Shown here piece by piece: positions 5,464-44,327 of a DNA stretch of 64,000 bases. Source of the stretch: an uncultured Muribaculaceae bacterium (GTDB taxonomy: Bacteria > Pseudomonadota > Alphaproteobacteria > Rs-D84); NCBI GenBank assembly GCA_964587855.1, contig CAZPLT010000001.1:83523-147522 (forward strand), in the 5' to 3' direction. Position 1 is the stretch's first letter. Each line of letters begins with the position of its first letter. The notes under the pieces were generated by a model. The model saw nothing but the letters and a program-made list of their open reading frames with translations. It had not been told where the DNA came from and ran no database searches. Both the position numbers and the translations under genes were made by a program.

Positions 5464-5491
5464 TTGACAAATATACAAATCATACTATACT
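5464..5491 (+). promoter_or_regulatory. sigma70-like promoter (TTGACA-16-TATACT) immediately upstream of ATG at 5498
   Basis: -35 TTGACA 5464-5469, -10 TATACT 5486-5491. ATG only ~6 nt after the -10, implying a leaderless transcript. Confidence 0.45.
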
Positions 5492-6450: not shown

Positions 6451-6479
6451 AAATTTTGTTAATTGTAAAGGGGGTTTTT

Positions 6480-23178: not shown

Positions 23179-24240
23179 TTATTCTGATGCGGCTTCTGCC
23201 TGGGATATAACTGCTTCACCAGCAGTTTTTAAATTAGTTAAATATGTTTTATAACTGGTGCAATCCCTGGAAATTTCGGATTTATAAGAATCGCGCAGGT
23301 TTGAAACCATATAAAAACACCCTTTCAAATGTTGAACACAGTAATTATGGCCGATCAAGAATGCGTTTTGTCCACGCAGGCTATCATCGGTTTCATCCGG
23401 CCAGTCTATATCCAGCGCATCGTTTAAAGATGCCATATCATTTGTGCCAGTATGTTCATAGAAAGTATCCTGCCATAGGTCTTCTAGTTCGGCATCTGTA
23501 ATACTGGTACTGGATGAACCGCCATTTTTTATAACAATTATTTGTTGTAAAATATTTTCTACTTCGGGACGCAGGGTATTGTCTATGTTAGCTAACTCAT
23601 CACTGCAAAAACAACGATTATAAGCAGCGTTTTTTCGTTCACAATATCCATCCATACAAGATCTGTAATCAGCCAAACATTGTGATGTGCTTACCGAAGT
23701 ATCAGAAACAGTGGTTATTGTTGTGTCAGAAGAGCGAGTTGAAGTATCCCCGCGTGAAGATCGTGCAGATACGGTTCTGTTTTGGATTCCCCTGGCAGAT
23801 GAAGAATGTGTTGTGGCGCTTTTTGCGGTTGAACCGCTTCGCGCAACCACTCTCTTGGTGCCCGATGAAGAATATGTTGAACCGCTTCGCGCGACTACCC
23901 TTCTGGTGCCAGATGAAGTAGAAGAATTGGTCCTGGATGTGGTACCGCTGCGTGCTAATTTTGCCCCAGACGTATTGCCAGAACCCGTGGCCGCACGCGC
24001 AAAAGCAGAAGATGTGTCAGGTGTATATTCAGTATTGCTGGAATATAAAGAAGTCTGCATTTTTTCATTCATAAATGGTCGCATTGTATTATAAGTTGCA
24101 GGATTTATGTAATTTGATGCGGTTGCTGATTCGGCATTATTAAAACAAGTAAAAGAAAGTGTAAACAAAATGGCAAAAGTCATCATGCGTGCAAAAAAAG
24201 CATGTTTATAGTTTGCTATTTTGTTTCTTTCAGGGCTCAT
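23179..24240 (-). CDS. Secreted Ser/Thr-rich tandem-repeat protein with Cys-rich C-terminal domain
   Basis: Signal peptide. TRRVVARSGST... ~19-aa repeats (57-bp DNA tandem repeat ~23825-23940). 9 Cys in C-terminal 150 aa. Immediately downstream of a GT-like gene. Confidence 0.55.
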   Translation of the reverse strand: MSPERNKIANYKHAFFARMMTFAILFTLSFTCFNNAESATASNYINPATYNTMRPFMNEKMQTSLYSSNTEYTPDTSSAFARAATGSGNTSGAKLARSGTTSRTNSSTSSGTRRVVARSGSTYSSSGTKRVVARSGSTAKSATTHSSSARGIQNRTVSARSSRGDTSTRSSDTTITTVSDTSVSTSQCLADYRSCMDGYCERKNAAYNRCFCSDELANIDNTLRPEVENILQQIIVIKNGGSSSTSITDAELEDLWQDTFYEHTGTNDMASLNDALDIDWPDETDDSLRGQNAFLIGHNYCVQHLKGCFYMVSNLRDSYKSEISRDCTSYKTYLTNLKTAGEAVISQAEAASE

Positions 24241-24242
24241 TT

Positions 24243-25061
24243 TTATTTTCCAATCCAATATTTTCTGATCCATTTGGTCGGACGAACGTGTCGTAAACCA
24301 AATTTTGCGGTATATCCGTTCATGGCTTCTTCATTAATTGGTCTTCCGTGGAAAATAACAACTTTTGCACCAACTGGTAATTTAGGTGTAATAAACCAAT
24401 TAAATGGGAATTTTAAAAGACAGCAATATTTGAATGATCGTACCCAAGATTTACACATTGGGCATTCTTCGCCGTTCCAAAAGCTGAAAATGCCTTTTTT
24501 ATGCATTTCACGGGACATATAAGCCTGCTCGTGACGCACTTCGTGACGAATTTGTTCAAAATTTTTCTCGAAATAATCCAAAATATCTTGATGTTTACCA
24601 ATTTCAAATCTAAATACGGATGAATTTCCAACAGAATTATCGTTTGCTCTGTCCCTAGAGATAATAAATTTACCAGGTTGACGGAATAAATCATCAATAT
24701 TATCTATGATTACAACGTCCAAGTCCAAGAAAAGACCAATTCCTTTTAAATTTCCCAGTTTTTCAGATAATAATCCCAGTTTTTTCCATCCACGTTCAGG
24801 CAGTCCATTACGTAATTTTACAGGTGGTAATGAAAATGTTTCGATACCCTTGTCTAAGCCTTTGGGATCTTCGGTAAAACAAACAAACCGATGGGGCAGG
24901 GTCAGGTTTTTTTCAACCATACGATACAGGCGATTTACATATTCTTTGCTGAATTTTTCACTGCCATCTTCGCGTCGCCACCACATACAAACTACATTTA
25001 ATTCTTGTTTATTGGCGGATTTTACGGGTTTAACGGTTTTTTTTGTCGTTATTTTTGGCAT
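24243..25061 (-). CDS. Putative GT-A-type glycosyltransferase (DxD-like LDLDVVIID motif)
   Basis: 272 aa, no TM. Acidic motif FLDLDVVIIDNIDDLF typical of nucleotide-sugar transferases. Identity not established. Confidence 0.35.
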   Translation of the reverse strand: MPKITTKKTVKPVKSANKQELNVVCMWWRREDGSEKFSKEYVNRLYRMVEKNLTLPHRFVCFTEDPKGLDKGIETFSLPPVKLRNGLPERGWKKLGLLSEKLGNLKGIGLFLDLDVVIIDNIDDLFRQPGKFIISRDRANDNSVGNSSVFRFEIGKHQDILDYFEKNFEQIRHEVRHEQAYMSREMHKKGIFSFWNGEECPMCKSWVRSFKYCCLLKFPFNWFITPKLPVGAKVVIFHGRPINEEAMNGYTAKFGLRHVRPTKWIRKYWIGK

Positions 25062-27668: not shown

Positions 27669-28475
27669 TTACTTACATAATATGTTTTTCATTTCTTCTA
27701 CAGGGAAACGTTCCTGGACCCAGCTGTCAGTATCGTACCCTTTCCAACCATTAGCTGATCCACCACTTGGGTTTTTTACCATAGTATTAACTATATTTCT
27801 ATTTGTATCCCGTATCTTTGTATTATAAAACATTATTTCATCTATGATTCTGGAAAGATATTCATCAATTCTGAAACTTTCAGGTTGTTTGTTGCCTTGG
27901 CAAAATTCTTGATAGGTAAGGCATTTGCTGCCTGTATTTATTCTGTATGGATCGTCAAACCCACGTGTAGCATATGCAAATCCCAGCGCAAAACACCAAT
28001 AAGAATAGTTAAGAAAATCACAAGTTATATCCAGTCTTGTATTTGATGGAGCCTTTTTAGCTGCGCTAATTTCCCCGCTAAGGGTTGAGTCATGATCAAA
28101 AAATGCAACATATTTATTATATTTATTTGTGCAATCTTCTTTATTTCCAACAACCGAATCTTTGAGAAAGCTTATATATTCTGTTTTGGTTTGAATAGGT
28201 TGGTCCAAAGTATCGTATTTTTTTGAATAATAACTTGTAGATGATGAATCTGAATCGTTAATACGTGGGGACGATCCCCTGGTGCTAGAAGAAGACGTAG
28301 TTGGATTTGTTCGTGGCATGACCAGCGAACGGACAAATGTAGGCATGTCTGAGTAAAGATCTGAATATGCCGAAGAAAGCAATGATTCTTCAGGTGTTCG
28401 AGAATTTTGCCTTTGTGAAGAAAAAGCTACAATCGGAATAAATAGTAAAGCAGTTAAAGTATAAAGTTTTCGCAA
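27669..28475 (-). CDS. Secreted Ser-rich protein, unknown
   Basis: Signal peptide, S/T-rich low-complexity region, Cys-containing C-terminal domain. Confidence 0.5.
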   Translation of the reverse strand: MRKLYTLTALLFIPIVAFSSQRQNSRTPEESLLSSAYSDLYSDMPTFVRSLVMPRTNPTTSSSSTRGSSPRINDSDSSSTSYYSKKYDTLDQPIQTKTEYISFLKDSVVGNKEDCTNKYNKYVAFFDHDSTLSGEISAAKKAPSNTRLDITCDFLNYSYWCFALGFAYATRGFDDPYRINTGSKCLTYQEFCQGNKQPESFRIDEYLSRIIDEIMFYNTKIRDTNRNIVNTMVKNPSGGSANGWKGYDTDSWVQERFPVEEMKNILCK

Positions 28476-28926: not shown

Positions 28927-29481
28927 ATGTATAATTATTTAGATATAAATTTAGATAAACCAATAGTAATGGTTGGTTTAATGGGTGCTGGGAAAACGTC
29001 TGTTGGGCGAATGTTAGCACGTCGACTGGATATTCCTTTTGTTGATTCTGATAAAGAGATTGAGGCCGCTGCCGGCTGCAGTGTGGTTGATATTTTCTCT
29101 TTATATGGTGAAGCAGAATTTCGCCGTGTAGAAGAACGGGTTTTCAAACGTTTGTTAAATTCTCCGCCATATTTAAAAGTTATTTCAACGGGCGAGGGGG
29201 CATTTATTACTCCGACTGTTCGTGAATTAGCGCACAAAAAAGCGATAACAGTATGGCTAAAAGCGGATGTAGATTTATTGGTAAAACGTACGACTTTTCG
29301 TGATACCAGACCACAATTATTAAATGCGGATCCCAAGAGAATTCTTTCTACTTTGATTGCGGAAAGATATAAAATTTATGCCCAGGCTGATATAATTGTT
29401 GAAACAAATGATGAGCATGTTTCAAAAACACTTACCAAAACATTAAATGCTATAAAAAAATATCAAAAGGATAAAAAATGA
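28927..29481 (+). CDS. aroK: Shikimate kinase
   Basis: Walker [10 protein letters not shown]. Shikimate kinase length and LID region. Confidence 0.85.
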
Positions 29482-29993
29482 TGGGAAATTTTTTTGCCGA
29501 ATTTCGAGAATTTGCTGAACGTGGCAATGCGATAGATATGGCTGTCGGTGTTATTGCCGGCGCGGCAATGAATGGCGTTGTAAATTCTTTGGTCAAAGAT
29601 GTTATTATGCCACCAATCGGTTTAATGTTAGGTGATATGGATATGTCGGCAATCTCTATAACTTTATCTGGTAATACCAGAATAGGAATAGGGCTGTTTA
29701 TGAATTCTATAATTGGTTTTATCTTAACCATGTTAGGTGTTTTTCTGTTTGTCAGATTTTTAAATAAAATGCAGATTAAAAAAGCATCTGATAAACGTTC
29801 TTGTCCATTTTGTTTTTCCAGTATTTCTACGAAAGCTATTAAATGTCCTTATTGTTGCTCGGTTGTAGAGCCTATTAAAGGGGCTTTGGTTAAAAATAAT
29901 AGATTAGACAAACTGATTGGTGGGATTGGCGAAATAGACCCAATAAAAAGTCTTAAAAAAGTCAAAAAACATATAAAAAAGATAGTAAAATAA
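29478..29993 (+). CDS. mscL: Large-conductance mechanosensitive channel with C-terminal CxxC...CxxC zinc-ribbon extension
   Basis: N-terminal [28 protein letters not shown] is classic MscL TM1. Extra ~45-aa tail CPFCFSS...CPYCCS. Confidence 0.85.
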
Positions 29994-30058
29994 TTACTGA
30001 ATTTTTTAGCTATTTTTACTTTGACACTTGTTTTATCTGATAGTATGATAATTTCACT

Positions 30059-31333
30059 ATGTTAAACTGGATAGCCAGACAATATTCTTCCCTAGCATCT
30101 CTTTTGACCGCGCCTTTTCGTGCAGTGTGGCGCGTGATATGCAGATTGTTTCCAGAACGGGATATAACAATTATTTCTGGTGGGGATTTAATTTCTTATC
30201 GTCAAACATCGTTTTGGCGGATTGCGCGTGGCTTGGGCAAGATTATTTTGATTATCTGGGCAATATGGGCAACTTATGTATTTGTTTATCATCGTCCATT
30301 GTTACAAAAACGTACTCGGCAATTGGAAGAGGCTCGTGCACAGCATGTTCAATATATGTCTGATCTGAATTCTTTTTATGCGAAATATTCTGCATTACAT
30401 GAAGAAATGAACGATATAGATGATCAGTTGATAAATAGTAAAAATATGAAAAAAGCCGCGCAAGAGGCATTGTTAAAACGTCGTGTGAATACTTGGGCCC
30501 AGATTGAAATGTTGGGAACACGTATAAAAAATATGATGACTGACAGCAATTATACTCCAGAAATCAAGAATTTATCTGAACTTTCTGTAGAATACGAACT
30601 TACACGTGAAGAAAACCGTCAATTATTTGAATCTAATCAAGAAATGGAAAAATCCATAGTTATCATCAGTGACGCAACAAATCAAATTTATGATCGTGTA
30701 TCAAAATTAACCAAAGAAAATTTAACCCAAATTAATAAAAATATGTCAAAGCTTCAAGGTTCTTTGGCCAATTTGGGACTGAATACACGTACGTTGTCGC
30801 AAAAAGCCTTAGCTGTAAATAACAGTATTGTCGGGGGTGCAATTTCCCCAATGGATTTAGATAAAGATATAGATCCAAAATACAAAGAATTAGCAGACAA
30901 GATAGAATTATGGCAAGGATTATCACGTGCAGCGGCTATACTGCCAATGGGCGCACCTGTAAAAAATGCAGTCATAACTTCAAAATATGGGGATCGTGTA
31001 CATCCATTAGATGGCGTAATTAAACCACATAGCGGATTAGATTTTGTTGGAACCGTAGGTACGCCTTTATACGCGGTTGCTCCAGGCAAAGTCGTTTTTG
31101 TTGGTGATAAAACTGGATATGGCAAGGTTGTAGAAATTGATCATGGAATGGGCTTTACTACTTTATATGCACATTTATCAAAATTTCGTATTCAACGTGG
31201 CGATACGGTACATGCCAAAGATATAGTTGGATTGGCTGGAAATTCTGGTCGTACAACGGGGCCTCATTTACATTATGAAGTCAGATACAATGATCGTCCA
31301 TTTAATCCGTACAGCTTTGTAAAGGGGAAATAA
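30059..31333 (+). CDS. Membrane-anchored M23 peptidase (coiled-coil plus LytM domain)
   Basis: TM near N-terminus, coiled coil. C-terminal HSGLDF...GYGKVVEIDHGMGFTTLYAHL...GPHLHYE (HxxxD and HxH zinc motifs). Confidence 0.8.
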   Translation: MLNWIARQYSSLASLLTAPFRAVWRVICRLFPERDITIISGGDLISYRQTSFWRIARGLGKIILIIWAIWATYVFVYHRPLLQKRTRQLEEARAQHVQYMSDLNSFYAKYSALHEEMNDIDDQLINSKNMKKAAQEALLKRRVNTWAQIEMLGTRIKNMMTDSNYTPEIKNLSELSVEYELTREENRQLFESNQEMEKSIVIISDATNQIYDRVSKLTKENLTQINKNMSKLQGSLANLGLNTRTLSQKALAVNNSIVGGAISPMDLDKDIDPKYKELADKIELWQGLSRAAAILPMGAPVKNAVITSKYGDRVHPLDGVIKPHSGLDFVGTVGTPLYAVAPGKVVFVGDKTGYGKVVEIDHGMGFTTLYAHLSKFRIQRGDTVHAKDIVGLAGNSGRTTGPHLHYEVRYNDRPFNPYSFVKGK

Positions 31334-31334
31334 G

Positions 31335-31691
31335 ATGTTTGCGTTTACAAATTCTAAAGAAAAAAATAGTCCTACAATTATTGGAGCAGGTGCCAAAATA
31401 ATTGGTGATATCAAGGGTGGTAATATCGTTCAAATTCATGGTCAAATAAATGGCAAGGTTATGGCAGATACGTTAGTTGTTGGACGCGGGGGCAAGATTA
31501 TAGGTAAAGTTGTTGCAAAGAATCTGTTTCTACATGGTATGATTGATGGTCCAGCAACGGTTGATATTGCAAATATCTTTTCTGATGCTGAAATGACGGG
31601 AGTTTTGTCTTATAAAAAGCTAAATATTACAAATAACAACAGATTGGATTGCAAATTAGTTTGCAGAAAGGGTGGAGAGTGCAATGTTTAA
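31335..31691 (+). CDS. Bactofilin (DUF583 beta-helical cytoskeletal protein)
   Basis: Repetitive IxGxxxG beta-helix pattern (IIGAGAKIIGDIKGGNIVQIHGQINGKV...). 118 aa. 1 bp after the M23 gene. Confidence 0.7.
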   Translation: MFAFTNSKEKNSPTIIGAGAKIIGDIKGGNIVQIHGQINGKVMADTLVVGRGGKIIGKVVAKNLFLHGMIDGPATVDIANIFSDAEMTGVLSYKKLNITNNNRLDCKLVCRKGGECNV

Positions 31692-32124
31692 TGGCAATAT
31701 TTATATTTCTTCGGATCATCGTGGGGTTGGGTTGAAACTGTATTTGACCGAAATGTTATCAGCATCTGGTTATAAAGTAGTAAATTTGGGTACAGATAAT
31801 CCAAAAGATGATGTAGATTTTCCAGAAATTACTAAACGTGTAACAGATGCTATACTAACAGATAGTTCGGCACGCGGTATAGTTATATGTGGGACAGGTG
31901 CGGGGGTTCAAATTGCAGCAAACAGATATAAACATATACGCGCAACCAGATGCGAACGTCCAGAGCAGGCTCGTGCAGATAGATTTCATGATGATATAAA
32001 TGTACTTGCGCTGGCAGCTGATGAAACAGATCCTGAAATGGCAATGGCATGTGTTTCCGAGTTTCTAGAAACCCAATTCGACGCGATAGAACGCAGAGTC
32101 CGCAGAATCAAAGAAATTTCTTAA
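31684..32124 (+). CDS. rpiB: Ribose-5-phosphate isomerase B
   Basis: RpiB/LacAB fold. ISSDHRG and CGTGAGVQIAANR motifs. Confidence 0.85.
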   Translation: MFNGNIYISSDHRGVGLKLYLTEMLSASGYKVVNLGTDNPKDDVDFPEITKRVTDAILTDSSARGIVICGTGAGVQIAANRYKHIRATRCERPEQARADRFHDDINVLALAADETDPEMAMACVSEFLETQFDAIERRVRRIKEIS

Positions 32125-32135
32125 AAAGATAAAAA

Positions 32136-32864
32136 ATGTCGTTAAAAAAAATAGCAATAAATTTATTATGCGGATTTATCCCATTTGAAAGAAACAGAAG
32201 GGTTTTGCGAGGTTTTTTATCCGGCAAAGCAAGAAATAATCAAATAATTTTTGTAAAAAATGGAAAACAATATAAAAAAAGATTTTGGAATTTTATCCCT
32301 GGGCTTTCAATAAAAATTGCTGGGAATAACAATAAAGTTATTTTAGTTTTGCCAATAAAAGCAATAAATTCTCAAATAGATATAGATGGGGATAATTGCC
32401 ATGTTGAAATAGGAAAGACGGATAAATTCTATAATGTAAAAATTCATTTATGGGATGGGGACAATCAAATCCTTACAATTGGGGACAATACAACAATACG
32501 TGGCGCAGAATTTAGAATGGCGAACAGTAATACAATGATTAAAATCGGAATTAATTGTATGTTTTCTTGGGGGATTTCAATTTTTGCTACGGACAGCCAT
32601 ACGATTTTTGATAAAGACACAAAAGAAATTTTAAATAAACAAAAAGAACCTTTGATAATAGGGGATAATTGTTGGATAGCAAATAATGTAATTTTTACTA
32701 AAAATGCCCAAATCCCAGACAATACTATTATAGGGATGTTTTCGTTAGTTTCTAAGAAATTCACAGAACCGTTTACGATTATTGCGGGAAACCCAGCAAA
32801 AATTGTAAAACAAAATGTATCGTGGACGGAAAAAGAAATATATTTGGTTGAAAAAAATGTGTAA
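32136..32864 (+). CDS. Hexapeptide-repeat (left-handed beta-helix) acetyltransferase
   Basis: C-terminal IGDNCWIANNVIFTKNAQIPDNTIIGMFSLV (LbH repeats). Confidence 0.7.
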   Translation: MSLKKIAINLLCGFIPFERNRRVLRGFLSGKARNNQIIFVKNGKQYKKRFWNFIPGLSIKIAGNNNKVILVLPIKAINSQIDIDGDNCHVEIGKTDKFYNVKIHLWDGDNQILTIGDNTTIRGAEFRMANSNTMIKIGINCMFSWGISIFATDSHTIFDKDTKEILNKQKEPLIIGDNCWIANNVIFTKNAQIPDNTIIGMFSLVSKKFTEPFTIIAGNPAKIVKQNVSWTEKEIYLVEKNV

Positions 32865-32884
32865 AATAAAAAAAAGGAGAAACA

Positions 32885-33235
32885 ATGGCATATTTTATGA
32901 TTCTGGCAATAGCTGTATTATGTATAGTTTTATTGATTTTTTTGATTCAAATCCCGGTATTAATTGCTCGTGGTCGCAGTTTGTCGGCATCTGATATAAC
33001 AACAATCACTATTTTATCGTGGTTTGGGCTGATTTTCGGGGTTACTTGGTTTGTTGCGCTGGTTTTATCACTGGTATGGCGACCTGGGCAGTGGACAGGC
33101 AGATGTGAAGCATGCGGTGGCACCAAACCGACGGTTGATGCAGCAGAGCAATTAGAAAAATTGGACAAGTTAAAAAAGCGTGGGGTAATTACACAAAAAG
33201 AATTTGATGCGCAAAAGAAAAAGATTTTGGGATAA
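32885..33235 (+). CDS. Membrane protein with Imm-like 2-TM N-terminus and C-terminal SHOCT domain
   Basis: Two TM helices with a W/GW-rich motif. C-terminal LEKLDKLKKRGVITQKEFDAQKKKIL is a SHOCT motif. Confidence 0.5.
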   Translation: MAYFMILAIAVLCIVLLIFLIQIPVLIARGRSLSASDITTITILSWFGLIFGVTWFVALVLSLVWRPGQWTGRCEACGGTKPTVDAAEQLEKLDKLKKRGVITQKEFDAQKKKILG

Positions 33236-33291
33236 AAATAATTGTAAAATTATATTAAAAAACAAAGAGTTCCGTTAAAAAGGGAACAACG

Positions 33292-33320
33292 AAATATATG
33301 GGGAAATCCCATATATTTTT
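33292..33320 (+). terminator. AT-rich hairpin terminator (11-bp stem aaatatatggg/cccatatattt plus T-run)
   Basis: Perfect 11-bp inverted repeat with 5-nt loop followed by ttttt. Confidence 0.5.
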
Positions 33321-33361
33321 GATACTTAATAAGCGCATAATGTATATTATGTATAGTTTAA

Positions 33362-33411
33362 GATGTATAGAATTATGGGGCTATTCAATTAGCCCCATAA
33401 TTCTATACATC
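33362..33411. repeat. 22-bp perfect inverted repeat (hairpin, 6-nt loop)
   Basis: gatgtatagaattatggggcta-ttcaat-tagccccataattctatacatc. Flanked by further near-palindromic AT-rich sequence. Confidence 0.9.
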
Positions 33412-33566
33412 GCAAGATTTGTAAACAATACATAATATATCATATCAAACGAAAACAAAATTAAATTACGCTCATTCTTAAAAAACTGGCGGCTGTTTCT
33501 CTCTCTTTTTTATTTTCAGATTTTTCTTTTTATTTCTAACTCGTTTTATGCTAAAATGCCGGTATT

Positions 33567-34289
33567 ATGCGTATAGATGTTTATCTTACTCAACAAAAAT
33601 TATACCCGACCAGGGCAAAAGCGGCCGCTGCGATCGATATGGGCCTGGTTTTTATAAATTGTAAATTATGCAAAAAATCCAGTCAAATCATAAAAGAAAA
33701 TGATAGTGTTAAAGTAAACTCTCTACCTTTTGTGTCGGGACGCGGTAGTTTAAAACTGGCGCACGCTTTGGACCATTTTAAAGTCGATCCGACCGGCCTT
33801 ACCTGTCTTGATATTGGTGCCAGTACCGGTGGTTTTACCGAAATTTTATTAAATCGTGGTGCTGCTCAAATTTTTGCCGTGGATGTCGGAACCAATCAAC
33901 TGATTCCAGAGCTTCGCACAAATAAACGAGTAACATCATTTGAAAATACTGATATTCGTACTCTGCCCGTTATTAAACCTGTGGATTTAGCGGTAATCGA
34001 CGTGTCTTTTATATCACTAAATGATATTGCGCAATCGGTCGTTAATTGGAATCCAAAGCAAATTATCGCATTGATAAAGCCCCAGTTCGAGGTTAAAAGC
34101 AGCGTTTCTGCTAAATTTCACGGTATTATAAAAGATGAAAAATATCATGCAGAATCAATCAAAAACACCGTAATAGCATTTGCTAAATTTGGTTATATTG
34201 CATCAAATGCTATAAAATCCCCCATCAGGGGCGGCAGTGGGAATATAGAGTATTTAATTATGTTTAATATTGGTGAAAAAAGCCGGTAA
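33567..34289 (+). CDS. tlyA: TlyA-family rRNA 2'-O-methyltransferase (S4 + FtsJ-like domains)
   Basis: S4-like N-terminus (MRIDVYLTQQKL). SAM motif LDIGASTGGFTE. ~240 aa. Confidence 0.85.
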   Translation: MRIDVYLTQQKLYPTRAKAAAAIDMGLVFINCKLCKKSSQIIKENDSVKVNSLPFVSGRGSLKLAHALDHFKVDPTGLTCLDIGASTGGFTEILLNRGAAQIFAVDVGTNQLIPELRTNKRVTSFENTDIRTLPVIKPVDLAVIDVSFISLNDIAQSVVNWNPKQIIALIKPQFEVKSSVSAKFHGIIKDEKYHAESIKNTVIAFAKFGYIASNAIKSPIRGGSGNIEYLIMFNIGEKSR

Positions 34290-35571: not shown

Positions 35572-36600
35572 ATGTTTGACCCAACATTAGTAGTTCAATC
35601 GGCAATAAGCAGTTTTAATAATATCGCATTGCACAGTCCAGACTTTTTTTGGAGCACCCTGCTCTGTCTACCTATTTTCGCAGTATTCTGGATTTTTGCT
35701 CCAGAAATCACCACAAGATTTTTGCCAGATTCAAAAAAGCGCTTAAAAACAATTGCAACGTGGAGTATTGCTTTTATTGCGATATGGTTATTAAGTCACG
35801 AAAGTTTTAACGCTTTGCGTGATGGAATTTCTTTGGGAATTTCTGCATTAACTGCTGCATGCGTTTTTGTTTTATCTTTGTTTGCTGGCTGGCATGTTCC
35901 GTCGTTTAGCAATCTTGTAAATATTAAAGAAAAATGGCGCAAAAAAGCAGATATAGTTGCACCAATAATTGCTGCGGCATTGATTGGATTATGTGCGTGG
36001 GGGACATGGCAGACAATTTTGGTTCAATTTATTGCGACTTTGTTCGGTTTTTATGCTGGGCGTTTAATGGTTTATCGTAATCGTCACAAAATGGGTTCAG
36101 AAAGTTTAGTAATATTATTGATGGGGTTATTGCTTTTTGGTTTAGTTATGCAGCCCGAGTTTTTCCGATTCGGTCAATTGGGTCATTTGACCATAATTCA
36201 TACTTTGTCTTTAATATTTACTTTGGTAACAATAATTGTCAGCATTATGATGCGTTCGGTCAGACCAACTGGCTGGTTAAAAAAATCACATTATAAAAAA
36301 TTAATGTGGTTAATGCGTGCCGGTATTATATTAGCATTGGTATTATTTTTGATGACAGAAAATGCTCTGGCTTTTGCAGTATTGGGTATGGGTATTTTTG
36401 TTCAATCATTCATAGTTATACGTCATCGTGCTCCATCGGATAGCAATTTATTAAAAAATTGGTCCGAAGATTTATGGATTTTATCTTTGGGATTATTTGG
36501 TTTATTAACAACAATGCCCACAATAATTTGTGCGGTAATAATTTTGGTTCGTACAAGGGTCAAATTTAGCGCCAAGGCAGCAATTAAAAGCGTGTTATAA
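35572..36600 (+). CDS. Polytopic integral membrane protein, unknown
   Basis: ~9-10 predicted TM helices. No recognisable motif. Confidence 0.5.
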   Translation: MFDPTLVVQSAISSFNNIALHSPDFFWSTLLCLPIFAVFWIFAPEITTRFLPDSKKRLKTIATWSIAFIAIWLLSHESFNALRDGISLGISALTAACVFVLSLFAGWHVPSFSNLVNIKEKWRKKADIVAPIIAAALIGLCAWGTWQTILVQFIATLFGFYAGRLMVYRNRHKMGSESLVILLMGLLLFGLVMQPEFFRFGQLGHLTIIHTLSLIFTLVTIIVSIMMRSVRPTGWLKKSHYKKLMWLMRAGIILALVLFLMTENALAFAVLGMGIFVQSFIVIRHRAPSDSNLLKNWSEDLWILSLGLFGLLTTMPTIICAVIILVRTRVKFSAKAAIKSVL

Positions 36601-38594: not shown

Positions 38595-40529
38595 TTATTT
38601 TAATGGGGGGTAGCATTCGCCGTCCGCTATCGCGCAGCATGCATAGCCATTCATACTTTCTACCCATCTAAAACTTTCCCCTGAGCAACAACCATTTTCA
38701 TCTGGGGCGTCGCCACTGGTGCATAATTGCGAAGAAACTGTATTATGTTCTTCATTGTAATTTGATGGACCATGTACTGGATATTCTGGTTTCAGTGGTA
38801 ATGTTATTGTTGATTTTTCATCTGGAACGGATATAACCTCTGGCTCTGGTTCTTGTACGGGTTCAGGCTCGGCAATTGGTGCGGGCATTGGTTCTGGTTC
38901 CGCCACAGGTTCTGGCATTGCGACTGGCGCGGGCATTGGTTCTGGTTCAATGACTGGCGCTGGTTGTGGTTCCGGTTCTGTGATAACTGGGACTGGCTGT
39001 GGTTGTGGTTTTACAATCGGTGCTGGCTGAGGCATGGGTTGTGGTGCCGGTTCCGCAACTGGTTCTGGCTGGGGCATTATAAATGCAGATTCATTTGTTT
39101 GTGGTGCTGGTGCGGTTTCTGTCGGAACATTTTCAGAAACGACACTGGGTTGCGCCAGATTTGGTGTTCCAGATTTATCCATTCTGGATTGATAAATAGA
39201 CAAAGTTAAAATGCAAAGTCCGATTAAAATAACCAACATTATATAATAAACAAAGCTGGGCTTTTTTGCCCCAACAGGTGGGTGCAAAACTGTAACATCA
39301 GGATTTGTTATTGGGGATGCGGGTCTTTCCATTTCAACCGGCGGCACCACTGGCGGAACGGTTGGTTCTGATAACTTTGCAATAGGCTGTTGTTGTGGTA
39401 CAGCAATAGTTTGCTGAGGCATATTCACAGGTATAGTTGTTGGTTCAGTCGTATTGATAACCGGTTCAACAACAGTTGGTTCAATCGGCTGTGGTGCAGT
39501 GAAAGTTATCGAATCGGGGGTTGTTGTGTTGTCTTCCGAATTTGTTTGCTTGATATTAAATTCTGTTGGATTAAATGAAGGTGTTTCAAATCCAATCGGT
39601 TGGAAAGCAATTTTATCATCTATTATTTCAGGATCTTTGTTAAACAAAGGTTTTGGTTCATCTGCCATTCTTGGCTCCTGTGATTTTTCTATATTTATTA
39701 AATCTTTGACGTTATTTGTCGCCTTTAATACATTGCGTGCTGCGGTTGAATCATTTCTTGCATCTTCCAGTCTTTTTTTTGCGCGACGCAATCTGGCCTT
39801 TGCCCGTTTTTCTTTTTCGTTTACTTTATCCATTTGGGATTGGACTTTTAATATTTTTGCTGCGGATTCTTTTGTTGGTTTTTTCCCAACTTCACTGCGT
39901 ATTTTGTTCAACTTTGTTTTCAAAGATTTGATATTAGAATGTAATTTAATCAGGGATTCTTCGGTTTTTTTAATGGTTTCGGTTGAAATCTCAATTTCAC
40001 GCATAGCAGCATTTAATCTGGCCTGGGCCAATTCTTGACCGACAGTTATTCTAAACTTATTTAAATTATCCAATGCATTATCTATGGTTCCACCTGTTTT
40101 ATAATCAGCAATAAGTTGCCCATAAACAGGCAATCCTGTATAATTTATATCCAGCTTTTGATATTTATTATTTTTCTTTGGACGGACGTCTTCCAAATCC
40201 ATTTTATAATCATTGCTTAAAATATCGTCCCATTTGCGCCCTTCCCGATCCGCAATTATCAATAATATATTCGGAGTGTTTTCGGTACGTGTTTCATCCA
40301 ACACAAATATAAGTTTGTGATCAGCATCATAAAAAGCAGAAAATTTATTTCCAGAGATGTTAAAAGATTCCGTCATAATTTTATCAGTATATTTAGAATT
40401 ATTGAAAGAAAATACAGGCATGTCAGAATCTGGCATGGTTGCGATATGTGTGCTAGAAAAATTTTCTCTCTCGTTATTTGCCATTTTTAAGACTTCTTTG
40501 GTGGTGGCATTTGGTATGCTGCGCGGCAA
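38595..40529 (-). CDS. Bitopic protein with PEPxPAP-type proline repeats and Cys-rich C-terminal domain
   Basis: ~430-aa N-terminal region with coiled coil (KLNKIRSEV...RAKARLRRAKKRLEDAR). Single TM (YYIMLVILIGLCILTLSIY). >15 Pro-rich degenerate repeats. C-terminal 10-Cys domain. Alternative start 40484. Confidence 0.55.
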   Translation of the reverse strand: MPRSIPNATTKEVLKMANNERENFSSTHIATMPDSDMPVFSFNNSKYTDKIMTESFNISGNKFSAFYDADHKLIFVLDETRTENTPNILLIIADREGRKWDDILSNDYKMDLEDVRPKKNNKYQKLDINYTGLPVYGQLIADYKTGGTIDNALDNLNKFRITVGQELAQARLNAAMREIEISTETIKKTEESLIKLHSNIKSLKTKLNKIRSEVGKKPTKESAAKILKVQSQMDKVNEKEKRAKARLRRAKKRLEDARNDSTAARNVLKATNNVKDLINIEKSQEPRMADEPKPLFNKDPEIIDDKIAFQPIGFETPSFNPTEFNIKQTNSEDNTTTPDSITFTAPQPIEPTVVEPVINTTEPTTIPVNMPQQTIAVPQQQPIAKLSEPTVPPVVPPVEMERPASPITNPDVTVLHPPVGAKKPSFVYYIMLVILIGLCILTLSIYQSRMDKSGTPNLAQPSVVSENVPTETAPAPQTNESAFIMPQPEPVAEPAPQPMPQPAPIVKPQPQPVPVITEPEPQPAPVIEPEPMPAPVAMPEPVAEPEPMPAPIAEPEPVQEPEPEVISVPDEKSTITLPLKPEYPVHGPSNYNEEHNTVSSQLCTSGDAPDENGCCSGESFRWVESMNGYACCAIADGECYPPLK

Positions 40530-41546: not shown

Positions 41547-42641
41547 ATGAAAAAAGTATACGCTTTTTCAATGGCTGTTGCATGCTGGATAATCCCCGCT
41601 GGGATCGCATGCGCTACAGATTTCCCATTGTCCCAATACGGTCAGATTCAAAATGTCCAAAGCTATTCTTCTAACCCTTTTTATAATCCAGACAGCCCTT
41701 ATAATCAGCGCATGCCGACAGCAATTTATGCCCAGGGAACAGAATTAAATGCTGGGGAATGTCGCAATGTTGTTGATGTAATAGTCGGTGGATTATGCGC
41801 ACAACGTAATAATTGCGAAGGATTAAGTTTATCTGATATTCGTCCATCGGTGGTAATCCAATTATCAAATTTGACTGGACATAACTATGTTACGGCTTGT
41901 AATGGTTATATTCAACCATCATTTGAAGATTATATGAAAAATAACAGTGCGGTAAAAGTTACTGGCTTTCCATCGGCTTTTCCAACAGTTAATTCAACAC
42001 AAACAGAAAATTCATCCAGTGAATTGATTTTAAGTAATCCTTATGAATTGAAAAAAGCAGATTGGGAGAACAATAAAACTGCACGTCAAAATGAACTGCG
42101 TGCTTTACAAAGACAAAATGGTTCTGATGATGTAGCGTTGGCAGCAACAAAATTTCCAACAACTTATGCTGATTTATCTTTTACAGAAAGAATGGAAAAT
42201 GACCAGGCTGGATATGAACCATGGAAAGATGCCCAGGCTTATAAACCAATTAAAATAGAAGACGATGAAACAAGATATGAAAGAGAAAACGAACTCGCCC
42301 AACAACAATTAGAATTAGCAAAAAAACAAGATGAATTGTTACAGGTTACAAGTCAATGTACATGGTGTTATAACAATCAAACAAAATGTTATAATGATTT
42401 AGCCAAACAAGTTAATGATTTAAACAAGAGCAGAAAAGATAATGCTTGTTCAGAAAAGGTCTCTGGAACAGACACTTCATATATCGCACAAGATGTAGTC
42501 TCAGATGCTAAGTGCGGCTGGATTCTAAAAGATAATGTCAGAACGGTAACTTTAACCGACGCGGATTGTGGCACACCGTCTAATGGAAATAATACCGGAA
42601 ATGGTTCAAGTGATAATCCTATAGTTATTGATCTAGGGTAA
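41547..42641 (+). CDS. Secreted protein (364 aa), unknown
   Basis: Signal peptide. Cys pairs. Asn/Gln-rich. No domain recognised. Confidence 0.5.
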   Translation: MKKVYAFSMAVACWIIPAGIACATDFPLSQYGQIQNVQSYSSNPFYNPDSPYNQRMPTAIYAQGTELNAGECRNVVDVIVGGLCAQRNNCEGLSLSDIRPSVVIQLSNLTGHNYVTACNGYIQPSFEDYMKNNSAVKVTGFPSAFPTVNSTQTENSSSELILSNPYELKKADWENNKTARQNELRALQRQNGSDDVALAATKFPTTYADLSFTERMENDQAGYEPWKDAQAYKPIKIEDDETRYERENELAQQQLELAKKQDELLQVTSQCTWCYNNQTKCYNDLAKQVNDLNKSRKDNACSEKVSGTDTSYIAQDVVSDAKCGWILKDNVRTVTLTDADCGTPSNGNNTGNGSSDNPIVIDLG

Positions 42642-42643
42642 AA

Positions 42644-43741
42644 ATGAAAAAATATTTGAATATTTTTATTATATTCATTTTTATAGGCTGTTTTTATAGC
42701 GCTAGAAGTTATGGAGAAAATAATCCAACAAGTGCGTTTGAAGAATGTATGCAAAGGATACTTGCGGCTGATGATAATAAAAATGGCAAATCTGATTTTG
42801 CAGAAGAACTTGATAAACTGTTGGGAAATCCGAAAGATATAGAAAGTTTTACATCAGCTGCTAATTCAAAAGCCAATATAATAGCAGTTGCGATTACTGG
42901 TGCAGCATTTCATAAAGAAGATGGATTTTGTAATGATTTAATAATGAAAATTGCAAATGAGACAAAAGAATCATTTACCTTTGGATTAAAAAAGTTTGAT
43001 AAAACAGTACAATTTAAAATTAGTAAAAACAAGTTATTAGAACAATATAAAGTTGCGCTTGGAATACTTGTTGCGAATACTTCATCCTGGCAATATCCAA
43101 AAGTTATAGACAGAGATTATATTAGCGAAAAAACATGGGATAATGATTGCTCAGATTATTCATCTAAAAATCCATTTGATTCTGTTTATGATAGCGACCC
43201 TGTAAATATAGCTATGCAAAAAATAAAAGGTGACAGCGAAGAATATTTTATTGATGAACCAGAACATATGCACGCTTTCCCAGGATTGATAATAGAGGAT
43301 GTTACGTATCAAGATTTAGCTAATTTAGTTATTATGGATAATATTCCGATGGCAAAAGAGGAGATAACTAAATTTGCAACAAATGTAGCATCTTTATCTG
43401 GTGAATGCAAAGGGCATTATGCATATCTTGTATCGTATGTTGTCCCTGAAAAAATTAATACAGGGGTTGGACCTGGGCAAAGATGGGGAACAAATTTTGC
43501 CGTAGCCGGTATAACTGTAGCTGCTATTGGTGGTGCTACGGCTACTTGGGCTTCCGGTTCTCTTTTAGCGGGTATATTTGCTACAGCTGAAGTGTCTTCG
43601 GTAGTTCCAGTTGTTGGTTGGATAGTAGCAGCAGCATTAGTAGTAGTTGGTGGGGTTGTTGCCCTTGTTTCTTCTACGTCTACAGAAACTTTGGCAGATT
43701 TGCCACAAATGATGGTTGTAGATGGCCCATATCCATTATAA
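42644..43741 (+). CDS. Secreted protein with C-terminal Gly/Ala-rich hydrophobic segment (365 aa), unknown
   Basis: Signal peptide. C-terminal AGITVAAIGGATATWASGSLLAGIFA...VVGGVVALV (glycine-zipper-like). Confidence 0.5.
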   Translation: MKKYLNIFIIFIFIGCFYSARSYGENNPTSAFEECMQRILAADDNKNGKSDFAEELDKLLGNPKDIESFTSAANSKANIIAVAITGAAFHKEDGFCNDLIMKIANETKESFTFGLKKFDKTVQFKISKNKLLEQYKVALGILVANTSSWQYPKVIDRDYISEKTWDNDCSDYSSKNPFDSVYDSDPVNIAMQKIKGDSEEYFIDEPEHMHAFPGLIIEDVTYQDLANLVIMDNIPMAKEEITKFATNVASLSGECKGHYAYLVSYVVPEKINTGVGPGQRWGTNFAVAGITVAAIGGATATWASGSLLAGIFATAEVSSVVPVVGWIVAAALVVVGGVVALVSSTSTETLADLPQMMVVDGPYPL

Positions 43742-43789: not shown

Positions 43790-43863
43790 TGGTGCGGGCG
43801 GCGGGAATCGAACCCGCGTCTCGAGCTTGGAAGGCTTGCATTCTACCATTGGACTACGCCCGC
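43790..43863 (-). tRNA. tRNA-Gly (anticodon TCC)
   Basis: Reverse complement GCGGGCGTAGTCCAATGGTAGAATGCAAGCCTTCCAAGCTCGAGACGCGGGTTCGATTCCCGCCGCCCGCACCA. Anticodon loop CTTCCAA. Confidence 0.85.
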
Positions 43864-43876
43864 GATGCAAATTTTT

Positions 43877-43962
43877 TGGTGGGAGCGGTTGGAGTCGAAC
43901 CAACTCAAGCAAAGCTAACAGATTTACAGTCTGCCCCGGCTCTCCGACTCCGGCGCGCGCCC
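43877..43962 (-). tRNA. tRNA-Tyr (anticodon GTA), long variable arm
   Basis: Reverse complement GGGCGCGCGCCGGAGTCGGAGAGCCGGGGCAGACTGTAAATCTGTTAGCTTTGCTTGAGTTGGTTCGACTCCAACCGCTCCCACCA. Anticodon loop CTGTAAA. T-arm GTTGG-TTCGACT-CCAAC. C at position 8 and a C4.U69 acceptor mismatch are noted. Confidence 0.7.
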
Positions 43963-44017
43963 TAAAAATAAAAATAAAAAGACGAAAAAACGCTGTTGCG
44001 CTCTTTCGTCCAGATTT

Positions 44018-44093
44018 TGGCAGCCCCAACCGGAGTCGAACCGGTGTTCTCGCCTTGAAAGGGCGGTGTCCTGGGCCTCTAGACGATGGGGCC
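44018..44093 (-). tRNA. tRNA-Glu (anticodon TTC)
   Basis: Reverse complement GGCCCCATCGTCTAGAGGCCCAGGACACCGCCCTTTCAAGGCGAGAACACCGGTTCGACTCCGGTTGGGGCTGCCA. Very close to canonical bacterial tRNA-Glu. Confidence 0.85.
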
Positions 44094-44100
44094 AAAAATA

Positions 44101-44177
44101 TGGCGGGATTGACGGGGATCGAACCCGCGACCTTCTGCGTGACAGGCAGACGCTCTAACCAGCTGAGCTACAACCCC
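44101..44177 (-). tRNA. tRNA-Asp (anticodon GTC)
   Basis: Reverse complement GGGGTTGTAGCTCAGCTGGTTAGAGCGTCTGCCTGTCACGCAGAAGGTCGCGGGTTCGATCCCCGTCAATCCCGCCA. Confidence 0.9.
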
Positions 44178-44327
44178 AATTATCATCTTATGCTAATCCG
44201 TGGGATTAAAGATGAAGGCTCGCCAAGTTTATACTTTTCAATAATAAAAATCAAGGCTTTTTTTCATCTGGGTAAGAGCTGCTTGCCTCCCTGCTCTTTT
44301 TCGTGTTATAATAATTATTCAGAGAGA

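Follow-up and report, generated by a model that had tools for sequence, protein, structure and literature searches.

A probable LmdC-BacA-type peptidase-bactofilin gene pair in an AT-rich uncultured gut alphaproteobacterium

Two adjacent genes in the analysed stretch of DNA (64,000 nucleotides, called the window below) encode a predicted membrane-anchored M23 peptidase and a small bactofilin (Table 1). The pair is likely to be orthologous to LmdC-BacA, a morphogenetic module of alphaproteobacteria, because domain content, protein architecture, similarity of the docking motif, gene order, the bactofilin fold, dN/dS values and conservation of the promoter and the Shine-Dalgarno (SD) element all agree. 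Both proteins had already been annotated by standard pipelines, and the wide occurrence of bactofilin-M23 pairings, in 226 species, has been published (Pöhl et al., eLife 2024, PMC10945521); the pair is an ordinary new example of a described system, the current understanding of which it leaves unchanged. The ORF listing and the sequence confirmed an earlier assignment of a peptidase gene and a bactofilin gene separated by one nucleotide: the TAA stop codon of the former (31331-31333) is followed by a single G (31334) and then by the bactofilin ATG. The GC content in the window is 34-41%.

Table 1. Features of the peptidase-bactofilin locus (window coordinates)
Feature	Position	Strand	Details
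Sigma-70-like promoter (predicted)	30021-30049	+	-35 TTGACA 30021-30026; 17-nt spacer; -10 TATGAT 30044-30049
M23 peptidase gene, LmdC-type bitopic DD-endopeptidase (putative activity)	30059-31333	+	ATG, 424 aa
Cytoplasmic motif R-x-F-P-E-R-x-I-x3-S-G-G...S-x-W	30143-30220	+	codons 29-54; candidate bactofilin-docking site
Single transmembrane helix GLGKIILIIWAIWATYVFVY	30230-30289	+	codons 58-77
Periplasmic helical, coiled-coil-like stalk	30296-30943	+	codons 80-295
M23/LytM catalytic domain	31025-31309	+	codons 323-417; H324, D328, H372, H403, H405
SD-like AAGGGG	31322-31327	+	within last peptidase codons, 7 nt before bactofilin ATG
Bactofilin gene, minimal, BacA-like	31335-31691	+	ATG, 118 aa
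Bactofilin N-terminal motif MFAFTNSKEKNSPT	31335-31376	+
rpiB (ribose-5-phosphate isomerase B)	31684-32124	+	Pfam and NCBIfam; start overlaps bactofilin stop, ATGTTTAA, 8 nt

The 118-aa protein passed the bactofilin profile (DUF583/PF04519; E=1.8e-15, 57.4 bits, Pfam curated cut-off 27.9 bits), with residues 14-107 covering 96 of the 98 profile positions, and a precomputed PF04519 match was present in 48/48 of its homologues. No family was matched when the protein was scanned against NCBIfam, in which no model captures it. Sequence matches in the PDB were 6ria and 2n3d. The AF2 model is all-beta (pLDDT 86), and the first three structures retrieved with it by Foldseek were 6ria, 2n3d and 6rib (target-normalised TM 0.82-0.92, rmsd 1.0-2.4 A), all three bactofilin entries: two show the Thermus protein and the third shows Caulobacter BacA. 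The predicted structure thus confirmed a bactofilin beta-helix with residues 14-107 as its core; a disordered C-terminal tail is absent. When the polymerisation-critical Phe of the hydrophobic end-to-end interface (Thermus F105, Caulobacter F130) was located by ungapped offset in the HMMER alignments, both residues fell on Leu104, a Leu in place of Phe that does not vary within the clade. The N-terminus (MFAFTNSKEKNS) keeps M1 and F2, position 4 is an invariant Phe instead of Lys, and K10 is invariant and E9 nearly so. This N-terminus has a net charge of about +1 and departs from MFSKKKK, the published consensus for membrane targeting of bactofilins, of which F2, K4 and K7 are critical in C. 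crescentus (PMC12448750). Canonical MFSK or MFTK N-termini were found in more distant bactofilins encoded next to LmdC genes.

In the 424-aa protein the Pfam profile PF01551 (Peptidase_M23) matched residues 323-417 with 111.9 bits (E=1.6e-32, curated cut-off 28.7 bits). The metal ligands claimed in the earlier note (HxxxD and HxH) are present as H324-S-G-L-D328 and H403-L-H405; together with H372 (in YAH) all five zinc/catalytic residues are intact, and they are invariant in 40 homologues and in 20 distant LmdC-like proteins. A PDB sequence search yielded 39 M23 chains at E<=1e-3, including Csd1, NMB0315 and ShyA, the best match being Csd1 of the Csd1-Csd2 dimer (5j1l_A, E=4.1e-29). Foldseek matches of the model were likewise active M23 peptidases (ShyA, NMB0315, Csd1/2/3 and lysostaphin). 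By analogy with LmdC and the nearest characterised M23 enzymes, the protein is expected to be a peptidase of the catalytic type with DD-endopeptidase activity. The window also encodes another M23 protein, at 4354-5430, which is EnvC-like and degenerate.

A membrane anchor and a coiled coil had also been claimed for the peptidase, and both were borne out. Segment 58-77 contains the only 19-residue windows above a Kyte-Doolittle value of 1.6, falls within a long helix of the AF2 model (51-126) and belongs to a region in which W67, W70, Y73, F75 and Y77 are invariant in the homologue alignment. Further AF2 helices span residues 132-161, 177-238, 243-252 and 273-294. The heptad a/d contrast of the stalk is 0.414, compared with 0.283+/-0.035 in shuffled sequences (0/300 reached the observed value), and the periodicity is strongest at about residues 95-130 and 209-260. 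LmdC consists of a short cytoplasmic beta-hairpin region, one transmembrane segment, a coiled coil and a C-terminal M23 domain (PMC10945521). The peptidase has the same bitopic layout, a short cytoplasmic N-terminus being followed by one transmembrane segment, a coiled coil and the M23 domain, and the elements of the AF2 model come in the order hairpin, long helix, further helices, beta domain. The charge is positive on either side of the transmembrane helix (+2 and +3), which leaves the positive-inside rule undecided; the probable N-in orientation therefore rests on homology and on the need of the M23 domain to reach the cell wall.

Within the N-terminal region of the peptidase, conservation is highest in the cytoplasmic hairpin motif. 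In the AF2 model it forms a beta-hairpin (strands 34-40 and 43-49), the pLDDT of the cytoplasmic part being only moderate (about 67-77). A peptide comprising aa 1-38 of H. neptunium LmdC has been shown experimentally to bind BacA (PMC10945521). Residues 29-54 of the peptidase are identical to this peptide in 12/25 positions, with an alignment score of 44 against 24.6+/-3.8 for shuffled sequences, only 1 of 2000 of which reached 44; among the 99 ORFs of the window the M23 peptidase was the best match to the peptide. The P-[ED]-R motif occurs in all 20 aligned LmdC-like proteins. The full-length comparison was made with a protein of Robiginitomaculum (Hyphomonadaceae), standing in for the LmdC proteins of H. 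neptunium and R. rubrum. The two proteins align end to end from the FPER motif as far as the C-terminus (residues 30-422 of the peptidase, 28% identity, E=2e-42), and the Robiginitomaculum tail FPERQIYHRSKGEVRYI closely resembles the H. neptunium LmdC peptide FPERQIYHRSGGTVRYI. We propose, from the sequence similarity and the modelled hairpin, that residues 29-54 are a bactofilin-docking site. When the R. rubrum mutation sites (clusters I and II) were mapped through the pattern of Rhodospirillaceae homologues, not through the R. rubrum sequence itself, 2/5 were identical (R34 and S40), and the same mapping gave L to I36, H to D35 and R to I39 as the changed positions. With only two of the five identical, the docking surface appears to have diverged.

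The two genes are neighbours in relatives as well. In 22 of 32 related genome loci a bactofilin gene lies directly downstream on the same strand, and it does so in all 18 loci that have a full-length match to the M23 protein; the latter count places the adjacency far outside what chance would give. The adjacency spans Rhodospirillaceae, Hyphomonadaceae and gut MAGs, is found on metagenome contigs too, and is kept at 26-28% identity while all flanking genes change. Comparison with relatives gave dN/dS values of 0.06-0.10 for the peptidase and 0.02-0.05 for the bactofilin at dS 0.5-2.5; the pairs with L006, L008 and L010 were uninformative because their synonymous sites are saturated. These values indicate strong purifying selection on both genes. 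Lengths are conserved in more than 100 clusters (424-425 aa for the peptidase, 113-126 aa for the bactofilin), and the identical protein was recovered in four independent sequencing runs. The lineage is close to Rs-D84/Enterousia genomes from termites and animal guts. Strongly reduced genomes are described for the likely lineage, and its relatives, with genomes of less than about 1 Mb, have no flagella and a proposed dependence on partner cells (PMC12306168). The host genome is probably reduced, too, as read from the nearest relatives and the Rs-D84 literature (PMC12306168) and not from the 64-kb window.

The predicted promoter ends 9 nt upstream of the peptidase ATG. It matches the consensus in 11/12 positions and is the best site of the region; only 8 sites reach at least 11/12 in the whole window, both strands included. 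The overall number of promoter-like sites (24, compared with 25.2 in shuffled sequences) shows no excess, and the evidence for promoter function is carried only by this single 11/12 site and its conservation: 8 relatives, the most distant with 52% protein identity, keep the same -35/-10 geometry 7-10 nt upstream of the ATG, amid diverging flanks. No SD sequence is located between the promoter and the peptidase ATG, which implies a leaderless or near-leaderless mRNA; the transcription start is predicted at about 30056-30059. Preceding the bactofilin gene, an AAGGGG/AAGGAG-like element and a gap of 1-4 nt are kept in 8 relatives; the AAGGGG element and the 1-nt gap suggest that translation of the bactofilin is coupled to the peptidase gene. 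Independent gene calls gave a 146-aa rpiB product starting 8 nt before the end of the bactofilin stop codon, and this overlap is consistent with translational coupling of rpiB to the bactofilin gene. The trio of M23, bactofilin and rpiB genes is conserved only in loci L001-L011, and rpiB is probably a co-transcribed passenger that does not take part in the morphogenetic function. A terminator scan of the + strand from 30059 to 33600 found no terminator-like site, so that the 3' end of the transcript is undefined. An Rfam scan of the window detected tRNAs only, with no rRNA and no riboswitch or leader near the operon.

These features can be combined in the following model. Transcription of the operon would start at a conserved promoter of its own and give a leaderless or near-leaderless mRNA, and translational coupling would tie the amounts of peptidase and bactofilin together. 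Nucleotide-independent, end-to-end polymerisation of the bactofilin beta-helices would produce filaments or sheets that line the cytoplasmic membrane from inside; the invariant M-F-A-F motif at the N-terminus, the peptidase tail or the two together may attach them there. The peptidase would be inserted N-in, with its cytoplasmic beta-hairpin (residues about 33-49, FPERxIxxxSGG) docked on the polymer, while the transmembrane helix and the periplasmic stalk would let the M23 domain (zinc-dependent, residues about 300-424) reach the peptidoglycan. There it would cut peptide cross-links as a DD-endopeptidase, as expected from LmdC and Csd1. Hydrolysis would be confined to the zone marked by the bactofilin, so that local wall growth, and in consequence cell shape, would be altered. 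Which shape the module makes cannot be deduced from the sequence, and the same applies to the curvature or stalk-like morphogenesis suggested in the earlier note. The only published statement on shape is that the likely lineage is rod-shaped, as inferred from MreB/RodA/MrdA (PMC12306168). It seems rather improbable that the module, instead of tuning ordinary rod curvature, forms a specialised structure in a local part of the envelope, for instance a narrow neck, a stalk or an attachment pole through which a partner or host cell is contacted; on that reading the unusual invariant MFAFTNSxEK N-terminus of the bactofilin and the N-terminal helix found only in this clade's peptidases would be adapted to that role.

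Several other explanations were weighed against an LmdC-BacA orthologue. The bactofilin might scaffold other clients, the peptidase being an independent elongation or space-maker endopeptidase and the adjacency being inherited without physical coupling. Several bactofilin clients are indeed known, e.g. PbpC for Caulobacter BacA and chromosome-segregation proteins in Myxococcus (PMC12448750), and the docking residues defined in R. rubrum are only partly conserved. Moreover, the unrelated rpiB gene is equally tightly coupled in the operon, which means that tight linkage here need not reflect shared function. The M23-bactofilin adjacency, however, outlasts deep divergence, whereas the rpiB linkage is restricted to a close clade; a strongly conserved cytoplasmic hairpin motif is hard to explain without a cytoplasmic partner, and binding has been proven experimentally in two other alphaproteobacteria (PMC10945521). 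We regard this explanation as unlikely.

An assembly of the Csd1/Pgp3-CcmA type, in which membrane adaptors (Csd7/Csd5-like) link the peptidase to the bactofilin and a helical twist results, appears quite improbable. The earlier note had likened the pair to both LmdC/BacA and Csd1/CcmA. The former comparison gained support from the architecture, the cytoplasmic hairpin motif, the intact catalytic residues and the gene order. From the latter the resemblance survived: besides the best PDB sequence match, the best NCBIfam match was Pgp3 (NF052530 Heli_ShapePgp3, residues 185-422), the csd1-ccmA gene order is the same and Helicobacter entries occur in the published list. Family membership did not survive, as the Pgp3 model scored 106.3 bits, far under its cut-off of 300. 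The PDB holds no LmdC structure, so that the best PDB hit is biased, and the closest full-length relatives are alphaproteobacterial. The FPER...SGG hairpin motif of the peptidase is the one that mediates direct binding in LmdC. The ORF list and Pfam revealed no adjacent Csd2-like degenerate paralogue.

Very improbable, in our view, is that the M23 protein is an inactive or division-specific LytM factor (an amidase activator like EnvC, NlpD or DipM) standing beside the bactofilin by chance. A coiled coil joined to a LytM domain is found in EnvC, and weak NCBIfam matches to EnvC, NlpD, DipM and ActS were obtained, but these models scored 41-57 bits against cut-offs of 270-900. The activators have lost the residues that are intact and invariant here, and the peptidase has an N-terminal transmembrane anchor, with no signal peptide or lipobox. 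On the low model scores and the intact ligands, membership in any of the four activator families was rejected. Since the activator role already has a candidate in the EnvC-like protein at 4354-5430, the peptidase is more readily taken as catalytic. That the two ORFs are functionless, decaying relics, as the strongly reduced genomes of the likely lineage (PMC12306168) might suggest, is a negligible prospect, effectively refuted by the selection analysis and countered by the conserved lengths, the repeated recovery of the identical protein and the conserved promoter and SD element.

Taken as an LmdC-BacA orthologue, the pair extends the module to an uncultured AT-rich gut alphaproteobacterial lineage outside the published survey of 226 cultured species, the supplement of which contains no Enterousia or uncultured alphaproteobacterial entries (PMC10945521). 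Should the lineage be Rs-D84, to which the nearest relatives point, strong purifying selection has preserved the module despite the loss of most biosynthesis. Its retention in reduced genomes would speak for an important role of localised wall hydrolysis in these cells; it would also suggest that the published rod shape, deduced from MreB/RodA/MrdA alone, may be only part of the picture. The clade could help to dissect the essentials of bactofilin-client binding, with a bactofilin that is minimal by nature (118 aa, no tails) and a docking motif that has diverged.

The system shares with LmdC-BacA of H. neptunium and R. rubrum the order lmdC-then-bacA on one strand with an overlap or a gap of a few nucleotides, the bitopic peptidase with FPERxIxxxSGG hairpin, transmembrane segment, coiled coil and an M23 domain with all Zn ligands, a small bactofilin with an MF- N-terminus, and the alphaproteobacterial lineage. 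It differs in that the bactofilin is 118 aa long instead of about 160-180, lacks the disordered C-terminal tail and starts with MFAFTNSxEK, not with an MFSK-type motif, and the peptidase is extended at its N-terminus by 30 helical residues that are conserved and specific to the clade. Among the docking residues (mapped via Rhodospirillaceae homologues) R34, I36 and S40 are kept or similar, whereas H is replaced by D35 and R by I39. Furthermore, rpiB is translationally fused into the operon, and the gut bacterium that carries the pair is uncultured, AT-rich and probably genome-reduced, a type missing from the 226-species list. In Csd1-CcmA of Helicobacter pylori and Pgp3-CcmA of Campylobacter jejuni, as here, the M23 gene is directly upstream of the bactofilin gene (csd1 precedes ccmA) and the catalytic residues are intact, Csd1 being the closest solved-structure sequence match of the M23 domain. 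The Csd1-CcmA link in H. pylori runs through other proteins; the present peptidase has the LmdC-type cytoplasmic hairpin, no Csd2-like paralogue beside it and a Pgp3 score under the cut-off. The BacA-PbpC stalk module of Caulobacter crescentus, whose BacA structure 2n3d is matched by the present fold, is analogous in that a membrane-associated bactofilin polymer recruits a bitopic wall enzyme via a cytoplasmic tail, but that enzyme is a synthase, a class A PBP, in place of a hydrolase. Caulobacter BacA begins with MFSKQAKS, which contains K4 and K7, both missing here (PMC12448750). EnvC, NlpD and DipM have the coiled coil and the LytM-fold domain in common with the peptidase; they lack the metal ligands and the N-terminal transmembrane anchor, whereas the peptidase described here keeps all ligands.

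Reading of the junction sequence (...GTA AAG GGG AAA TAA G ATG TTT...) placed the stop codon of the peptidase gene at 31331-31333, followed by a single base and the bactofilin ATG. The Pfam domain Peptidase_M23 covers residues 323-417 (E=1.6e-32, 111.9 bits, cut-off 28.7) and Bactofilin covers residues 14-107 of the 118-aa protein (E=1.8e-15, 57.4 bits, cut-off 27.9). ORF list, sequence and Pfam thus confirmed the coordinates, the domain assignments and the 1-nt gap of an earlier note, including its identification of the small protein as a bactofilin. The only peptidase segment with a Kyte-Doolittle mean above 1.6 is formed by residues 58-77 (GLGKIILIIWAIWATYVFVY). Hydrophobic heptad a/d periodicity in region 80-295, peaking at about 95-130 and 209-260, exceeded that of all 300 composition-matched shuffles, supporting a coiled-coil-like character; the transmembrane anchor and coiled coil of the earlier note are therefore supported. 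In the AlphaFold2 model (40 homologues as input, mean pLDDT 74) two short helices and a beta-hairpin (strands 34-40 and 43-49) precede a very long helix (51-126) that includes the transmembrane segment, further helices extend to 294, and a beta-rich domain (311-415) forms the C-terminus.

LmdC is a bitopic protein with a short cytoplasmic N-terminus, a transmembrane helix, a periplasmic coiled coil and an M23 domain, which has all Zn ligands and DD-endopeptidase activity; lmdC adjoins bacA, and a conserved beta-hairpin within the cytoplasmic part binds BacA (PMC10945521). The LmdC peptide 1-38 of Hyphomonas neptunium (MAKWSANLKATFDRAFPERQIYHRSGGTVRYISISPWQ) has a KD of about 15 uM for BacA (PMC10945521). 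In local alignment this peptide matched peptidase residues 29-54 (RLFPERDITIISGGDLISYRQTSFWR) with 12/25 identities. The score of 44 was reached by one of 2000 shuffled peptides (24.6+/-3.8), and the peptidase scored highest among the 99 window ORFs of at least 100 aa. The matching stretch is exactly the modelled hairpin, directly ahead of the transmembrane helix. A Robiginitomaculum (Hyphomonadaceae) protein, whose tail (FPERQIYHRSKGEVRYI) is a close match to that H. neptunium peptide, aligns with the peptidase from the motif to the C-terminus (28% identity, E=2e-42). Most likely, and with good confidence, the gene pair is an orthologous LmdC-BacA module. Helicobacter pylori Csd1 (5j1l_A, 4.1e-29) is among the top PDB sequence matches of the peptidase; given the putative docking motif, an indirect complex of the Csd1/CcmA type appears unlikely. 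When the Rhodospirillum rubrum mutant clusters R25/H26/L27 and R30/S31 were placed by pattern via Rhodospirillaceae homologues, R34, I36 and S40 were conserved or similar, and H and R were replaced by D35 and I39, indicating that the predicted docking surface has diverged.

The bactofilin matched the Thermus bactofilin (6ria, 1.4e-6) and Caulobacter BacA (2n3d, 6e-4) in the PDB. Its model is all-beta (pLDDT 86), and the three top fold matches are solved bactofilins, two from Thermus and one Caulobacter BacA (target-normalised TM 0.82-0.92). The protein is minimal, with 13 residues ahead of the core and no disordered C-terminal tail. The membrane-targeting consensus of bactofilins is MFSKKKK, of which F2, K4 and K7 are critical in Caulobacter (PMC12448750). 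The N-terminus found here, M-[F/L]-A-F-T-N-S-x-E-K-x-S-P-T, is nearly invariant in the clade; it retains F2, has Phe at position 4 and carries a net charge of about +1, whereas farther bactofilins adjoining LmdC-like genes have canonical MFSK/MFTK. By ungapped offset from HMMER alignments, Leu104, invariant in the clade, would be the counterpart of the polymerisation-critical Phe (Thermus F105, Caulobacter F130).

One scan of species-representative genomes yielded 32 loci, whose ORFs were then searched by iterative HMM. In 22 of these loci a bactofilin gene lies directly downstream of the M23 gene on the same strand; the earlier note had named loss of this adjacency in relatives as refuting its reading. 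All 18 full-length M23 matches have this neighbour (spacing -31 to +100 nt); they include termite-gut and animal-gut alphaproteobacterial MAGs, Candidatus Enterousia, Rhodospirillaceae and Robiginitomaculum. The loci without it match in the M23 domain only (Ciceribacter/Rhizobium, Rhizomicrobium, Streptomyces and others); Caenispirillum (L028), likewise a domain-only match, does have it. Independent gene calls on metagenome contigs gave the same arrangement, and the identical peptidase occurred in four sequencing runs. Among the 226 species listed in PMC10945521, H. neptunium and R. rubrum show the same order with near-overlap; uncultured gut alphaproteobacteria are absent from that list. The flanking genes vary, aroK-mscL being upstream in the closest relatives only and rpiB following in loci L001-L011 only. 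That the two proteins function independently and their adjacency was merely inherited is unlikely beside this pattern.

The rpiB start lies inside ATGTTTAA, and by sequence and gene calls the gene overlaps the bactofilin stop by 8 nt, probably through operon compaction. The M23-bactofilin-rpiB trio is kept down to 31% M23 identity, with no evident functional connection. The acetyltransferase gene between rpiB and a SHOCT membrane protein gene occurs only in this strain and in metagenome contig L033, which carries the identical peptidase; in L001-L006, L008 and L037 the SHOCT gene directly follows rpiB, so it looks like a strain-specific insertion. The MscL homologue, of similar length in close relatives (about 166-168 aa), matches Pfam in residues 5-104 only and has a zinc-ribbon-like C-terminal tail, CPFC...CPYCC, unusual for MscL. 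The ORF at 27669-28475 is conserved: the close relatives L001, L002, L004 and L037 have it in the same position, and L006 at a different position on the other strand.

The LytM-type catalytic set is complete (H324-x3-D328, H372, H403-x-H405), in agreement with the earlier note on HxxxD and HxH, and invariant in 40 homologues and 20 more distant relatives. The top PDB sequence matches, Csd1, Neisseria NMB0315 and Vibrio ShyA, are all active endopeptidases, and Foldseek on the M23 domain agreed. The top NCBIfam model, Campylobacter Pgp3, scored 106 bits (cut-off 300), and EnvC, NlpD, DipM and ActS scored 41-57 bits (cut-offs 270-900). Complete ligands and sub-cut-off scores indicate, at the sequence level, that the peptidase is a catalytic-type M23 enzyme outside every family modelled by NCBIfam. 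A role as division activator, as for the EnvC-type models it partly resembles, is unlikely. Decay of the gene pair is likewise unlikely, as Nei-Gojobori dN/dS, taken only against relatives with unsaturated dS, was 0.06-0.10 in the peptidase gene and 0.02-0.05 in the bactofilin gene.

Among the sigma-70-like sites of the region, the best one ends 9 nt ahead of the peptidase ATG, with no Shine-Dalgarno sequence between; both strands of the whole window contain only eight sites of at least 11/12. In eight relatives, down to 52% protein identity, this -35/-10 pair persists 7-10 nt ahead of the ATG, while the surrounding bases differ. This suggests that a promoter of its own serves the operon and that the mRNA is leaderless or nearly so. 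Conserved, too, is AAGGGG within the last peptidase codons, 7 nt ahead of the bactofilin ATG. No terminator-like site was found 3' of the operon on the + strand up to 33600. Two of the eight sites end 6-9 nt before ATGs (5498, 30059) without Shine-Dalgarno, so leaderless mRNAs may be common in the organism.

Features of the window
Feature	Position	Strand	Remarks
Second M23 protein	4354-5430	+	358 aa
Sigma-70-like site	5464-5491	+	at least 11/12
APH-family kinase	5498-6418
S41 (CtpA-type) protease	6456-7790		PDZ
ORF	23179-24273	-	no Pfam family
ORF	27669-28475	-	268 aa; hydrophobic N-terminus, Ser/Thr-rich low-complexity stretch; no Pfam match
MscL homologue	29478-29993	+	171 aa
Sigma-70-like site	30021-30049	+	TTGACA-17-TATGAT, 11/12
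M23 peptidase	30059-31333	+	424 aa
Bactofilin	31335-31691	+	118 aa
rpiB	31684-32124	+
Hexapeptide-repeat acetyltransferase	32136-32864	+
ORF	35572-36600	+	no Pfam family
ORF	38595-40529	-	no Pfam family
ORF	41547-42641	+	no Pfam family
ORF	42644-43741	+	no Pfam family
tRNAs Gly-TCC, Tyr-GTA, Glu-TTC, Asp-GTC	43790-44177	-
ORF	44199-46169	+	no Pfam family

The nearest genomes, at 72-82% identity, are gut MAGs of 'Alphaproteobacteria bacterium', from termites and other hosts, and some of them are wrongly labelled Muribaculaceae; Candidatus Enterousia follows at 52%. Enterousia belongs to order Rs-D84. For this order genomes of 0.67-1.6 Mb, a fermentative metabolism and a lack of flagella are described; it may be partner-dependent, its rod shape was inferred from MreB/RodA/MrdA, and its many hypothetical membrane proteins possibly act in cell-cell interaction (PMC12306168). 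The window has 34-41% GC. Its genes would fit this description, as they include those for pyruvate:ferredoxin oxidoreductase, enolase and iPGM besides many ORFs that lack a Pfam match, and a reduced genome may be presumed for the source organism. At E<=1e-5, six large ORFs (342-656 aa) match no Pfam family; two neighbours among them, 364 and 365 aa long, are perhaps paralogous. A mechanically listed 780-aa ORF (43827-46169, +) overlaps the tRNA cluster, so its true start lies downstream of 44177. The second M23 protein, upstream of the kinase and protease genes, has an N-terminus resembling a signal peptide, a long region of coiled-coil-like character and a LytM domain without HxxxD or HxH, and looks like an EnvC-like degenerate activator.

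The earlier note's interpretation of the gene pair was essentially right. What the analysis itself shows is the anatomy of the pair, its modelled folds, the similarity of the motif, the synteny and the selection. Binding, polymerisation, activity and topology would follow the characterised homologues: bactofilin polymers at the inner membrane face would bind the cytoplasmic hairpin and, via the transmembrane helix and coiled-coil stalk, place an active DD-endopeptidase within the periplasm, so that cross-link cleavage, and hence wall remodelling, would be spatially confined. The pair is retained in a lineage whose genome is probably reduced.

The LmdC-BacA system is already described and known as widespread, and standard annotation pipelines name both proteins. 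In known systems the outcome is bud-neck and stalk control (Hyphomonas) or curvature reduction (Rhodospirillum). The present pair shows minor differences: its bactofilin is minimal and has a non-canonical N-terminal motif, the peptidase carries a clade-specific N-terminal helix, the putative promoter is of the leaderless type, and rpiB is fused into the operon.
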